Shown: piece after piece, positions 5,543-45,502 of the stretch
Position numbering within the stretch: the first letter of the stretch is position 1
How the letters are laid out: each line of letters begins with the position of its first letter
Assembly: GCA_964016885.1 (NCBI GenBank)
Contig: OZ024741.1
Coordinates: 84,754,001 to 84,818,000 of the forward strand
Reading direction: 5' to 3'
From: Eledone cirrhosa
Lineage: Eukaryota
DNA length: 64,000 bases
Translations under genes and position numbers: made by a program
Notes under the pieces: model-generated
Databases searched by the model: none
Told to the model about the DNA's origin: nothing
The model's input: only the letters and a program-made list of their open reading frames with translations

Positions 5543-5884
5543 ATATATATATATATATATATATATAGAGAGAGAGAGATAGATAAATAATAAGTATAAA
5601 TATTTACATTCATATATATATATATATATATATATATATATATATATATATATATATATCTACAATTAAATTAAAAATGTACATCCACATATGTATACTG
5701 AAATACTAGTATGCATATGAATACACACACGTGTACATATGTAGATGTACCGAGTTTTTCACTGGACACTTTACTGTGAGTGTCCAGCTATTCTGTATGT
5801 AAACACACAGACAAACCGGTTTTTAGAGTCATACTGGTTTTCGAGGAAACACCTTTCCTCTATTCTCCAGAAAGCCAGACAAGG

Positions 5885-5929
5885 AATATTGGACTAGTTT
5901 CGATGTTGTTACATCTCATCAGCAATATT
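5885..5929 (-). ncRNA. Type I hammerhead ribozyme (family A)
   Basis: aatattg CTGATGA gatgt-aaca-acatc GAAA ctag TC caatatt. Confidence 0.92.
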
Positions 5930-6622
5930 TACCTATCTTCCGGCCTTTCTAGAGAATCGTAAAAGCACATATCGTTATATGCTTTTTCTATGAAAATTAG
6001 TAGTGGGCAGACTAATTTGCATAGAGCGTGAGTACGTACCGGTTCAGCGGAGACGATAAAAACAAATAACGGAACGAAATTAAATTTCGTTTCGTTTGTA
6101 ACTCACTTTTGTATGACTGACGCTTAAACAATTAAATTAAAAATGTACATCCACATATGTATACTGAAATACTAGTATGCATATGAATACACACACGTGT
6201 ACATATGTAGATGTACCGAGTTTTTCACTGGACACTTTACTGTGAGTGTCCAGCTATTCTGTATGTAAACACACAGACAAACCGGTTTTTAGAGTCATAC
6301 TGGTTTTCGAGGAAACACCTTTCGAGGAAACACGAACGTGTGTGTATTCATATGCATACTAGTATTTCAGTATACATATGTGGATGTACATTTTTAATTT
6401 AATTGTTTAAGCGTCAGTCATACAAAAGTGAGTTACAAATTAGTGTGGTACAAATAACGAAACGAAATATAATTTCGTTTCGTTATTTGTTTTTATCGTC
6501 TCCGCTGAACCGGTACGTACTCACGCTCTATGCAAATTAGTCTGCCCACTACTAATTTTCATAGAAAAAGCATATAACGATATGTGCTTTTACGATTCTC
6601 TAGAAAGGCCGGAAGATAGGTA

Positions 6623-6667
6623 AATATTGCTGATGAGATGTAACAACATCGAAACTAGTCCAATATT
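6623..6667 (+). ncRNA. Type I hammerhead ribozyme (family A)
   Basis: aatattg CTGATGA gatgt-aaca-acatc GAAA ctag TC caatatt; canonical core, GUC site, palindromic stem III. Confidence 0.93.
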
Positions 6668-7088
6668 CCTTGTCTGGCTTTCTGGAGAATAGAGGAAAGG
6701 TGTTTCCTCGAAAACCAGTATGACTCTAAAAACCGGTTTGTCTGTGTGTTTACATACAGAATAGCTGGACACTCACAGTAAAGTGTCCAGTGAAAAACTC
6801 GGTACATCTACATATGTACACGTGTGTGTATTCATATGCATACTAGTATTTCAGTATACATATGTGGATGTACATTTTTAATTTAATTGTTTAAGCGTCA
6901 GTCATACAAAAGTGAGTTACAAACGAAACGAAATTTAATTTCGTTTCGTTATTTGTTTTTATCGTCTCCGCTGAACCGGTACGTACTCACGCTCTATGCA
7001 AATTAGTCTGCCCACTACTAATTTTCATAGAAAAAGCATATAACGATATGTGCTTTTACGATTCTCTAGAAAGGCCGGAAGATAGGTA

Positions 7089-7133
7089 AATATTGCTGAT
7101 GAGATGTAACAACATCGAAACTAGTCCAATATT
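7089..7133 (+). ncRNA. Type I hammerhead ribozyme (family A)
   Basis: Identical to 6623-6667. Confidence 0.93.
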
Positions 7134-7460
7134 CCTTGTCTGGCTTTCTGGAGAATAGAGGAAAGGTGTTTCCTCGAAAACCAGTATGACTCTAAAAACC
7201 GGTTTGTCTGTGTGTTTACATACAGAATAGCTGGACACTCACAGTAAAGTGTCCAGTGAAAAACTCGGTACATCTACATATGTACACGTGTGTGTATTCA
7301 TATGCATACTAGTATTTCAGTATACATATGTGGATGTACATTTTTAATTTAATTGTTTAAGCGTCAGTCATACAAAAGTGAGTTACAAACGAAACGAAAT
7401 TTAATTTCGTTTCGTTATTTGTTTTTATATATATATATATTTATTAAAATAACAGATTAA

Positions 7461-7511
7461 AGTTTAAGCAAAGAATCGCTGCTTTCACCCTCAACGGGAT
7501 CTTCTGAAACT
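7461..7511 (-). ncRNA. HHR-like motif with variant core CAGAAGA (N2 pLTR)
   Basis: agttt CAGAAGA tccc-gttga-gggt GAAA gca..tgc TT aaact; the same variant core is present at 20176-20224. Confidence 0.6.
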
Positions 7512-41800: not shown

Positions 41801-42582
41801 TCACACACACACACATACAGCACAGACGTACATGAATACGCGGACATATTTACACACTGTCATACGCATAAAGAAGCACGCAAACACACAAAAGTACATA
41901 CGAACATATATCTTCACACACAGAGTCACACACGTCAACATAAACGGGAACACCAAAGCACACGCGCAAACACAAATCCTTCACACATACACACAAACAT
42001 CCACTCACAGAGACACATACCATCACACAGACACACATATACCGGCTCACATGTTCACATACACCTGTACACAGACGTACACGTACATCCTCACACACAT
42101 ATACCCTCAAACACCGACACATAGACAGACACTCATGCAACCTCACATACACACATAAACAGGCACGTTTACAACCTCACACACAGACACACATAGAGTG
42201 GCACACATATACCATAACACACATATAGACAGATACACTTGAAACCTCATATACCCACACATAGATTATTTGTTCAAAATATGTAGTGTCAAATATTACA
42301 TTAACTACGTTTTTACCATATTTCTAATGAAGGACACTGTGAATGTCTTCAACAGTTTCATTGGCATATCTCTAATGAAAAAGGCTGTCTATGCTCTTGA
42401 CGTAAATTAGAAACCATTGTTGTTGTTATTTATACTGTGTATTGTGTTTTGGTTGGAATTATTGAAAAGAGTATCAAAGTAGCTATTGTTATTTACTTAC
42501 GAACATTTACATTCTGAATTCAATTTGTTCACGTTTTATAAACTAATGTTCGAGGAAAGTACTGGAATCGATTTAATCAAAA

Positions 42583-42680
42583 TTTCTTCTTCTTCTTCTT
42601 CTTCTTCTTCTTCTTCTTCTTCTTCTTCTTCTTCTTCTTCTTCTTCTTCTTCTTCTTCTTCTTCTTCTTCTTCTTCTTCT
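42583..42680. repeat. (TTC)n microsatellite
   Basis: Perfect trinucleotide run. Confidence 0.95.
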
Positions 42681-43710
42681 GAGAGGGTCATGGGGGCAGA
42701 GTCCTCAAACACCCTTCCAGTGGGACATGTCCGAAAGTCCCGATTGTATTCGCGAGTACTTTATTGATCTCCTAAATCCGATCGCAACAGTATCCTCTGG
42801 TGTACACGAGATGCATCTGGGAGCGGTGACTAATCTCTCGGAGGCTGAGGTCACAAGAGCAGTTAAATAGTTCAAATGTGGCAAGGACACTGGGGAAGAT
42901 GAAATCCATCTCGAGATATTAAAAGCCTTAAATAGTTGAGGCATTCTCTGGATGAGTCGTGTGTGCCGGGTGACCTGGATCTCTGGAAAGACATATAACC
43001 AATATCAATCGGGAGTGATAATCCCAATTTTCAAAAAGAGAAAGAAGAGAAATTGTTCCAATTACAGAAAGATCACCTTGTTAAGCCGCTCCGGTAAAGT
43101 CTATGCTAAGTGTCTGGCAAAGTTTGTCGAGCCCAAGCTAGCTGATCAACAGTGTGGTTTTCACCCCGGTCGCAGCAGTGCCGGCCAATTATTCACACTA
43201 CGGCAGGTCTTCGATAAATCGTATGAGGATTGCCAAGAGGTATATTCTTGTTTTGTAGACCTCGGAAAGGCATCTAACCGCGTTCCTCAGGACCTGCTGT
43301 GGTGGTTTTGCAGGAGTATGGGATTGATGGTCAACTTCTTGTTACCCTCACATCTCTATAGGAAGGCACGAATATTTGTGTTCGGATAAATCGTGCTAAA
43401 CCGAAACCACTCAATATGGGAGTAGGACTCCGCCAACGATGCGTAGTGTGACATCTCCTGTTCATTATTTTCATGAACAAGATTGACATGCACAGCTGGG
43501 TTGAAAGTGGTGTCATTACTGGCAGGAGTATAATCAGACGGCTGGAATTTGCAGACGACATGGTATTACTTAACTCAACAGGTGACCTCCGACTTTCATT
43601 TAATAGGTTTGATGCCGTGTGCTGCATGGCTGGAATAAAAATCAGTGCTGCGAAAACTGTGACAATCGTCCTTTCAAAGAAGCATGGGCAGTGCACTCTA
43701 CACGTGAATC
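42681..43710 (+). pseudogene. Decayed RTE-type LINE reverse transcriptase fragment
   Basis: IIPIFKK..CSNYRKITLLS, QQCGFHPGRSS..FTLRQ, CFVDLGKA and LEFADDMVLL across frameshifts. Confidence 0.85.
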
Positions 43711-44667
43711 AATATTTCCCTTCCCTCAGATTGCCTTGTGATTCAGTTAGTAACAATTTGCTATTTATTTTATAATTTGTATTTTCTGAACTCTTTTTCC
43801 CAATCTGGAATACACACTGAGAATAAAACCTTATCTCAAGTGTGTGTTGTCGAGGCGCGTGACTTAATTGCTAATGGGTTTGATTCTCGGCAGCATGTTC
43901 TATCATTGTGCAAAACATTTTATTTTACGTGGCTCCAGAGTACTGAGAGGGAAAATGAGTTGTACCAGTAATTAATTAGGGCCAACATTGCTAAACAATA
44001 TGTCACACTGAATCTCCCTAAAGTCTACGTCATGTGTACCCGTTTCTGTGGAGTGTTCATACACTCAGTTTAATATAAGATGGACTGTACATGTAATACA
44101 AAGGAGACAGACCTCTCGTATATTGTGTAATAACATGTTATTACAAGAGGGACTGTAGATGTGTTTCTAAAGGGCCAGCTTTGGTAGAAAATACATCAGG
44201 TCAAATCTCTTTGGGAACCACATTAATAGAAATGGGTCTGTGAAATTCTCAGCCACATGCAGGAACAACTGGAAGACTCGTCGTTGGAACCAGCGAAGGT
44301 CCATCAACACCAGTTTGTCAGTCTACTTATTCCTACTCCCACCAAAATTTAATGATAATCATCTAGGTTGTCTCTTAAATCATATGAACATAATCTCTTA
44401 TCTGATTATTCTTCTTCAAAGCGAGTTGGGGAATTCTTTAGTTGTTGTTGTTTGTTGTTGTTGTTCTTGGTAGTGGTGGTAATGATGTTACTGAGGTTGT
44501 TATTGTTGTTGTAGGTGGTGGTGATAGTGGTGCAATTCTTGCTGTTGTACCATTTAGCATTGGTTGTTGGTGGCGGTGATGGGCCTGTGGAGTGAAGTCT
44601 TCAACTATCTTGTTTTTTCTGGAACAATCTTTGTGCTTGAAGCACTACTATTGCTACAAATAATTTT

Positions 44668-44838
44668 TTCTACTTTAGGCACACGGCCAGCAATTACCCA
44701 GTACATTACTGATACTTTATTTTATCGACCCCGTAAGGATGAAAGGCAAAGTTAACCTCGGCAGGATTTGAACTCAGATCGTAAAGGGACGTAACTATGC
44801 TGGAAAGCATGGCGTCCGACCGTCTACCGATACTGCCA
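44668..44838 (-). mobile_element. tRNA-derived SINE (near-match inverted at 62092-62268)
   Basis: tttatcgaccccgtaaggatgaaaggcaaagttaacctcggcaggatttgaactcagatcgtaaagggac..gatactgcc. Confidence 0.8.
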
Positions 44839-44953
44839 ATAATAATAATAATAATGGCACATACACACACACACACACACACACACACATATCTATATAT
44901 CTATCTATATATATATATATATATATATATGTGTGTGTGTGTGTGTGTATATA

Positions 44954-45502
44954 TAAGTATGTACACGTACATACATATATGTATACAGACGTACAGTAGT
45001 ATGTATATATATATACATACATGCACACATATATATATGTACGTATGGATTCACCGAACATTTATTATAATGCTCGGATTGTTGAACGTATATACTTACC
45101 TTATGCATATTAACGGCTGAGTAGCCCAATTTGCATATCGAGTGGGTTAATCGGCCGGGTGCACCGAAAACGTTTTCGGTGCACCCGGCCGATTAACTCA
45201 CTCGATATGAAAAATTAGGCTACTCAGCCGTTAATGTGCATAAGAAAAGTATATGCTTTCAGACGTTCAACAATGTGGCAGGAAATTATACGTTGCTGAC
45301 GATAGCTAATAAGCTTGAAACTAGTACAGCGTTCCTTTGTCAGTGTTGAACAAACGAGCAACGATGGTTGCTAGACACTACGGCTTAATACGGGATGTTT
45401 GTTTACAAACAAACCGAGCATTTTAATAAATGTTCGGTGAATCCATACGTACGTATATATATATGTGTGCATGTATGTATATATATATATACATACTACT
45501 GT
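44954..45502. mobile_element. Family B retrozyme-like fold-back copy
   Basis: Matches the 16087-17284 unit; perfect palindromic junction gcaccgaaaac|gttttcggtgc at 45171. Confidence 0.85.
45290..45332 (+). ncRNA. Type I HHR (family B)
   Basis: acgttg CTGACGA tagctaataagctt GAAA ctag TA cagcgt; stem I is still paired despite two substitutions. Confidence 0.85.

Follow-up and report, generated by a model that had tools for sequence, protein, structure and literature searches.

Head-to-head insertions of Penelope-like elements and hammerhead retrozymes in the Eledone cirrhosa genome end at one long and one short site

We analysed a stretch of 64,000 nucleotides from Eledone cirrhosa (contig OZ024741.1, forward-strand positions 84,754,001 to 84,818,000, assembly GCA_964016885.1), hereafter the window, which contains paired insertions of Penelope-like elements (PLEs) and of non-coding hammerhead retrozymes. 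The source assembly measures 3.0 Gb and is AT-rich, and the window is rich in (TA)n tracts. Comparison of the window with itself revealed eight inverted pairs, each with a left arm that is sense on the minus strand and a right arm that is sense on the plus strand. The eight loci are head-to-head pairs with their 3' ends pointing outward. Polarity was read from hammerhead-like motifs and, for loci 3, 6 and 7, from the reading frame too, with the same answer. The loci fall into seven families: the retrozymes R1 (locus 1), R2 (loci 2 and 8) and R3 (locus 5), three Hydra-like PLEs, P1 (locus 6, intact), P3 (locus 3) and P4 (locus 7), and one PLE of Neptune type, P2 (locus 4). An earlier reading made from the letters alone (the sequence-only reading) had described at least eight insertions of a single polarity as fold-backs. 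All eight were seen, but "fold-back" is the wrong word because the inner ends of the arms fall at unrelated positions. The arms of a pair are 90 to 100% identical, which an assembly fold-back would not yield; the divergence between arms that the earlier reading had proposed to examine speaks against the artefact that it had named as fatal to its claim. Some limits had to be redrawn. The right end of locus 4, placed at 23180, lies at 23238, and the extra ~58 nt are a tail found in 24/24 relatives fetched. The pair at locus 7 is present, with the strand switch near 36790 and the long arm on the left (tblastn). That at locus 8 is present as well, with a left arm that has no hammerhead and a right arm ended by a piece of another PLE.

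The outer ends of the arms follow a rule. Each family has a "long" end site and, 29-167 nt upstream of it, a "short" one; in 128 of 130 scorable insertions (hand tally) each of the two sites terminates one arm. Within the window the rule is kept by seven of the eight loci; the right end of locus 8 is not scorable because the right arm is cut off by the P2 piece. For R1, we examined 28 clusters among 100 listed of 1460 exact matches to a 51-nt hammerhead pattern, and 11 further loci; 24 of the 28 clusters had two arms with readable ends. The ends fell at unit positions 228-233 and 299-302 in 31/31 two-armed insertions, window included (the short end of L034 is eroded), and the rule was kept even where the second arm measured just 13-16 nt (L037, L051). 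For P1, 60 regions were sampled (18 with two or more matches, 22 singletons and 20 around long ends). The ends lay at unit positions 60 and 202 (u60 and u202) in 44/44 insertions, and also in L094 and L238, while L080 stops at u53 in a CT repeat. Hand tallies gave 5/5 for R2, 7/7 for P4, and 13/13 for R3, 10/10 for P2 and 14/15 for P3, the queries for these last three having included the long end. Duplicated loci were counted once (L087, L133=L149, L147=L150, L157=L171, L114=L122, L213=L214), and insertions whose second end was deleted or lay beyond the fetched stretch were excluded.

The same pairing appeared when ends were taken in chromosome order, unselected by structure. Among the 31+100 P1 ends listed, 23 divergent pairs were long-short and none was long-long or short-short; exact end patterns miss variant ends such as that of L234. 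Among the 100+37 R1 ends listed, 25 pairs were long-short, none was short-short and one was apparently long-long, with the short end of L032 sitting between its members. Genome-wide totals of P1 long and short ends (473 vs 1213) were rejected as a comparison, as the long-end pattern covers common variant sites, and the R1 totals were likewise dropped, the short pattern counting minus-strand matches several times. Polarity, which the sequence-only reading had wished to see counted across the genome, is not random: within the 100 R1 matches listed, 16/16 strand switches within 5 kb run from minus to plus.

The two sites behave as places where copying begins. They are not stops, because multi-unit arms run past both of them repeatedly. 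Either end type is found on single arms and on arms of 13-60 nt. The long end falls about evenly on the left and on the right (18/31 for R1, 15/29 for P1). The start sites are preceded by a hairpin and then a 10-15-nt AU-rich linker; the fold is biased by two references truncated at the long end, and this arrangement is suggestive only. The claim of the sequence-only reading that reverse transcription starts at both outer ends agrees with this behaviour, and so does its claim that autonomous and non-autonomous elements share one insertion pattern, which we found in P1-P4 and R1-R3 alike.

We then compared the central junctions. The inner ends of the two arms are unrelated: none of 31 R1 pairs were closer than 20 nt, and 2/29 P1 pairs lay within 12 nt. 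Microhomology of at least 2 nt was present at 12/19 (R1) and 13/23 (P1) filler-free junctions, whereas shuffled breakpoints gave 18% and 16% (p about 1e-5 for either family). This test omitted 12/31 R1 and 6/29 P1 junctions because of filler or a substitution close by. Such microhomology is in line with the earlier proposal that the cDNAs are joined centrally. The arms are non-nested, so that neither could be copied from the other, in 10/31 R1 and 21/44 P1 insertions. Palindromic junctions are frequent in P3 alone, in which the two arms commonly end together at the 5' edge of the hammerhead-like motif. In neither R1 nor P1 did inner ends evidently accumulate at the hammerhead cut site; those of P1 pile up 30-75 nt upstream of it, inside the stem II insert. 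Target duplications of about 12-16 nt were found at 4 of 91 insertions examined (L068, L096, L056, L226); they are not readable at the remainder because these sit in (TA)n tracts. L068 keeps the rule at an AT-rich site that is not (TA)n, so that a self-complementary (TA)n target, on which the sequence-only reading had relied, is not strictly needed. At L091 (about 968-1200), the P1 second arm passes straight into R1-like retrozyme sequence, a fusion that is possibly a PLE-retrozyme RNA template switch or else the result of a later deletion.

Variants shared between the arms bear on the template. Marker alleles, defined as those present in at least three loci, agreed between the two arms in 68/78 (P1) and 58/62 (R1) comparisons, whereas permuting arms among loci gave mean agreements of 0.15 and 0.11 and maxima of 0.45 and 0.28, respectively; L055 was omitted as misaligned. 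Alleles private to a locus were found in both of its arms at 9/44 (P1) and 9/30 (R1) loci, and differences specific to one arm were mostly singletons, as expected of changes after insertion. In L043 and L062, unit-specific variants are common to both arms and in register. The two independent RNAs allowed by the sequence-only reading do not fit these results: free pairing of two RNAs is disfavoured because the arms share haplotypes and nearly always take one long and one short start. The hammerhead cut site is located 5' of both start sites and is crossed by most arms, and P1 arms of up to 3.8-3.9 kb exceed one unit (L227, L241), so the template must be either a circle or an uncleaved read-through RNA. 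The single circular RNA proposed earlier is allowed by arms that cross the cut site and exceed one unit, but a read-through RNA explains them too. A circle is not required because L241 is a possible linear source copy: it has a long end and two hammerhead-like motifs.

Independent support for the ends came from raw Illumina runs of three other samples, all from one study and under one species label, in which both P1 end types lead into (TA)n. At 31890, loose ends into (TA)n were supported by 127, 109 and 109 reads; at 32034, the two runs listed had 75 and 74 such reads. A contig from a second organism ends in (TA)n at the P1 long site. Two opposite-strand joints on the P1 unit were found with 3 reads each; judged by the length of their sides, one is head-to-head and the other ambiguous.

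The arms, junctions and motifs of the window are collected in the table below.

Table. Paired arms and associated features of the window (window positions; u, unit position).
Feature	Positions	Strand	Remarks
Locus 1, left arm, R1 (466-nt unit)	5662..6323	-	short end (unit position ~230); one hammerhead 5886-5928
Locus 1, junction	6324..6335		12-nt filler repeating adjacent sequence
Locus 1, right arm, R1, 2.3 units	6336..7428	+	long end (position ~302); hammerheads 6624-6666, 7090-7132
Locus 2, left arm, R2	16080..16542	-	short end; hammerhead core 16288-16318
Locus 2, right arm, R2	16542..17284	+	long end (tail ~54 nt); hammerhead core 16985-17015
Locus 3, left arm, 3' tip of Hydra-like P3	20066..20224	-	long end (tail ~90 nt); hammerhead-like motif 20192-20221
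Locus 3, right arm, P3	20217..20289	+	short end; near-palindromic junction at 5' edge of hammerhead-like motif
Locus 4, left arm, 3' tip of P2	22609..22875	-	short end; hammerhead 22765-22799
Locus 4, right arm, P2	22876..23238	+	long end (tail ~58 nt); hammerhead 22992-23026
Locus 5, left arm, R3 (318-nt unit, two units)	23390..24061	-	short end; U3-A8 hammerheads 23532-23568, 23850-23886
Locus 5, right arm, R3	24070..24347	+	long end (tail ~29 nt); hammerhead 24138-24174
Locus 6, left arm, 5'-truncated P1 (probable Hydra clade, 3178-nt unit)	29331..31761	-	long end u202
Locus 6, right arm, full-length P1, partial 5' pseudo-long terminal repeat	31761..35068	+	short end u60
P1 intact reading frame, 784 aa stop to stop	32053..34407	+	telomerase-like reverse transcriptase, putative C-terminal GIY-YIG-type nuclease, Hydra motifs
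P1 hammerhead-like motif, 84-nt stem II region	34900..35013	+	mirror copy 29528-29641 on minus
Locus 7, left arm, decayed Hydra-like P4	35264..36791	-	long end (tail ~167 nt); reading-frame remnants 36526-36788 on minus
Locus 7, right arm, P4	36792..36951	+	short end
Locus 8, left arm, R2 with internal deletions	44956..45172	-	short end; hammerhead lost
Locus 8, right arm, R2	45171..45502	+	3' end replaced by P2 piece (45499-46257); hammerhead core 45296-45326

At locus 6 the arms are 100% identical over 2283 nt and meet with 1-nt microhomology. A structure model of the 784-aa P1 protein reached a mean pLDDT of 89, and its best eight Foldseek matches were all telomerase reverse transcriptases (RTs). 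A Pfam search with the protein gave no direct match, GIY-YIG included, and a sequence search of the PDB nothing meaningful. In the C-terminal region Y657, Y670-x-G672, R681, H685, E740 and N753 are conserved among 117 homologues, one of which matches PF01541. The protein carries motifs of the Hydra clade (R38-W39-K40, D116-K117-T118, C636-x-C638-x5-C644, C734-xx-C737 and C762-x-H764) and no CCHH motif, and P1 is inserted into (TA)n as are elements of that clade. Its layout, with a partial tandem of the pseudo-long terminal repeat (pLTR), an inverted 5'-truncated copy and a tail, fits that of endonuclease-containing (EN+) PLEs. By its motifs, compared with section 11 of PMC8557442, P1 appears to be a Hydra-clade PLE. 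It resembles the C-terminal EN+ elements described there in RWK, DKT, CxCX5C, CxxC, CxH, a unit of ~3 kb and (TA)n targeting, and differs in its non-canonical hammerhead with a stem II of about 84 nt (82-83 nt in P4). In tblastn alignments, pieces of P3 and P4 share 33-58% identity with P1. P2 matches GIY-YIG at its C-terminus and carries cysteine motifs (zinc fingers) of Neptune type. A prediction of a P1 homodimer (residues 1-480, two copies, no alignment) scored 0.00 without a verdict and was weighed neither way. A look-up of RNA data sets containing P1 listed none.

Motif scans found a standard hammerhead core in R1, R2 and P2. In R3 the core is U3-A8 instead of C3-G8 in 34/50 motifs, with the 3-8 pair kept, and the P3 hammerhead-like motif has a U4A core. 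In P1 and P4 the two halves of the core are held apart in stem II, by the lengths just given, with stems I and III intact; this common layout is a candidate hammerhead variant of Hydra-like PLEs. The P4 motif of the window lies at 35485-35600. The canonical hammerhead that characterizes Hydra-clade pLTRs was not found in P1, and Rfam gave no match to it at the gathering score. For R1, Rfam yielded only sub-threshold HH9 matches. A strict hammerhead scan found nothing because stem III is minimal, and motif calls come from relaxed scans. The retrozyme units measure 466 nt (R1), about 430-450 nt (R2) and 318 nt (R3), with one motif each, and R1, R2 and R3 have the tandem non-coding units, type I hammerhead and short palindromic stem III of non-LTR (non-long terminal repeat) retrozymes, R1 being slightly longer than the published size range. 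The R1 RNA fold has z = -9.1. R1 arrays contain up to 16 units per arm (L058, L036, L044-L045), and in L058 and L036 periodic variants are private to one arm, which suggests that long retrozyme arrays partly grew after insertion.

Other elements accompany the eight pairs. A decayed Hydra-like P3 copy on the minus strand (7440-10300) forms a single arm with a short end and has a (TA)n tract in common with locus 1, and P3 pieces consisting of the tail alone lie at 2935-2985 and 35092-35174. Two 5'-truncated P2 copies (3611-4866 and 45499-46257) retain the GIY-YIG C-terminus and a hammerhead, with a short end in both. Hammerhead motifs of other families lie at 15439-15522, 22487-22544, 37907-37988 and 62925-62979, and short inverted repeats by (TA)n at 17359-17542, 14595-14900 and 46346-46452 are probably tips of other families. 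At 47543-49966, 56598-60248 and 50101-54807 there are two long RVT_1 frames on plus and, by eye, a broken nuclease-RT on minus resembling a long interspersed element (LINE). The only Rfam match of the window at the gathering score is tRNA-like (38205-38276, 45.4 bits) and lies between TA-rich tracts; it is possibly the head of a short interspersed element.

We consider it probable that the two target strands both prime cDNA synthesis on a single RNA, each at a different start site. After an enzyme of the element had cut the AT-rich target on both strands, the 3' ends so freed would each prime on this RNA, one cDNA beginning at the fixed long start and the other at the fixed short start upstream. 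A protein dimer may hold one start site in each active site. The cDNA started downstream would displace the other while passing; PLE RTs are not known to have RNase H. Each cDNA would stop independently, often at RNA structure, after which pairing of the two cDNA 3' ends over 1-7 nt would let each serve as primer for second-strand synthesis on the other. An uncleaved read-through RNA or a circular one would have to be the template. A tiny or absent second cDNA would leave an insertion that looks one-armed, and cDNAs that both stop at the same block would leave a palindromic junction; by this inference a common block on the template would account for the palindromic junctions reported in PMC3846280. 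Retrozymes would borrow the PLE machinery through their own pair of start sites. That such programmed twin priming is how EN+ PLEs normally integrate is a wider claim, to which we give slightly less than an even chance; in it, a dimeric RT-nuclease would open both target strands and carry out two reverse transcriptions from hard-wired starts on one RNA, which might be circular. If true, a single step would explain the inverted pLTR, the tail on one side and the partial tandem, and retrozymes would be RNAs retaining just the start-site pair and the hammerhead.

A number of observations weigh against priming of both strands on one RNA. Two insertions break the rule, both of them long-long (a mini-insertion in L234, and L213/L214). 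No leader-follower order is visible, because the arm that reaches further 5' is about evenly one or the other (13/31 for R1, 15/29 for P1). Markers were discordant in 10/78 (P1) and 4/62 (R1) comparisons, most of which resemble recurrent point changes or alignment effects; in L104 the arms differ at a common marker and may stem from two templates. Shared haplotypes could also reflect two RNAs of one source locus or early conversion between arms. Array length is no proof of rolling-circle copying, because arrays partly grew after insertion. In vitro, the anole PLE used the same start sites on top and bottom strands, their pairing not being measured (PMC11167929), and our analysis linked no particular PLE enzyme to any retrozyme. 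Finally, the read support that the sequence-only reading had called for exists for both end types in other samples, but no spanning read for the window's own P1 junction was among the rows listed, and those runs may be from other individuals.

Two RNAs of the same source locus, held in an asymmetric ribonucleoprotein such as a hammerhead dimer, might instead be started one at the long and one at the short site. This would produce fully overlapping arms without strand displacement and agrees with the independent lengths of P1 arms (Spearman -0.07) and with the discordance of L104; haplotypes would be shared if one source dominated per cell, and minimal hammerheads with a palindromic stem III are described as acting as dimers (PMC4209133). 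Identical RNAs, however, give no evident reason for the 128/130 rule. Many haplotypes occur among loci of similar age, yet arms nearly always agree, and the in-register variants of L043 and L062 also count against such sibling RNAs, which we regard as rather unlikely. In another, published route (PMC3846280; PMC8557442), self-priming or a template jump onto an antisense template creates an inverted DNA intermediate, which a nuclease resolves at the tail boundaries and of which only one end is target-primed. The palindromes that this entails are lacking at almost all R1 and P1 junctions, tail boundaries were mapped in vitro as RT starts (PMC11167929), multi-unit arms pass both sites without stopping, and single and very short arms carry either end type. 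Although this route predicts head-to-head polarity, shared haplotypes and a tail at one end, and palindromic junctions are common in P3 and reported in Adineta (PMC3846280), we find it distinctly unlikely.

Nor is a snap-back, in which the first cDNA folds on itself and the second arm is copied from the first, a convincing source of the pairs. Shared haplotypes and junction microhomology would result, and the geometry permits it in 21/31 R1 and 23/44 P1 insertions. It is impossible either way in the 10/31 and 21/44 others and gives no reason for a precise stop at the second site; it is not the general route because many insertions have non-nested arms, and we hold it very improbable. That the pairs are assembly fold-backs, or chance neighbours inserted independently in the same (TA)n, is scarcely credible. 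In its favour, (TA)n hotspots do gather independent insertions, and, besides the unspanned P1 junction of the window, the X1 contig there continues as the ordinary element. The arms, though, diverge by 0-10%, have asymmetric ends and centres with no (TA)n between them, lie in non-mirrored flanks and in some cases within target duplications, and switch strand with a single polarity in all 16 R1 cases listed; raw reads of other samples contain both end types and the two opposite-strand joints.

The observation is real and general in the source genome, and the architecture itself is known for PLEs. Head-to-head inverted pLTRs with a tail on one of them were already published (Arkhipova et al. 2013, PMC3846280; Craig et al. 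2021, PMC8557442), and the latter names the mechanism of tandem and inverted insertion an open problem. Hammerheads in pLTRs, with circles as possible templates, are described in PMC4209133. Published EN+ PLE units are like ours in polarity, partial tandems, a tail at one end, AT-rich or (TA)n targets and occasional target duplications. The published tail is optional or "often" one-sided and measures 30-40 nt, whereas here it follows the 128/130 rule and measures 29-167 nt; there it is ascribed to nuclease resolution or antisense self-priming with palindromes, whereas R1 and P1 junctions are mostly non-palindromic. With the Poseidon element PAc of Anolis in vitro, both target strands were cut and extended, two internal RT starts bounded the tail, uncleaved RNA was used and a dimer was predicted (Frangieh et al. 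2024, PMC11167929). The main text of that study does not tie the two starts to the two arms of one insertion, nor does it address inverted copies.

Outward polarity, a microhomology junction and a target duplication are traits of LINE-1 twin priming that we also found here, where the priming itself is what we infer. Twin priming of LINE-1 is a minority outcome with a variable internal priming site, largely non-overlapping pieces and a first arm primed at poly(A). By contrast, most insertions described here are such pairs, with fixed starts for both arms and an overlap between them that can reach kilobases; the non-overlapping inverted piece from a variable site typical of LINE-1 was not found, and only the shortest long-end arms are without overlap. 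The likeness extends to both break ends priming on one RNA (10.1101/2024.12.14.628481); PMC5718144 contributed nothing further. Animal non-LTR retrozymes are known as tandem non-coding units of 150-470 nt with type I hammerheads and have been proposed as PLE parasites (Cervera and de la Pena 2020, PMC7229834; Li et al. 2026, 10.64898/2026.07.22.740005). A word search of their main texts found no inverted or head-to-head architecture and no tail; unlike the published retrozymes, R1, R2 and R3 bear the PLE insertion signature. The one-long-one-short rule, the shared template and the extension to retrozymes were not found in the literature searched, and older papers or supplementary figures outside that search may hold the rule. 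What appears new is the nearly invariable pairing of start sites, the support for a common template and the presence of this signature in retrozymes.

For annotation, an inverted pair should be taken as one event rather than two, and not as an assembly error. The common signature of three retrozyme families provides mechanistic support for mobilisation by PLEs, beyond the published phylogenetic support. The main text of PMC11167929 leaves the steps after initiation unvalidated, and the pairing rule together with the shared haplotypes makes the insertion mechanism directly testable in that existing in vitro assay. If programmed twin priming is true, two-ended priming would be a programmed step in the retroelements closest to telomerase, and not an accident as in LINE-1.

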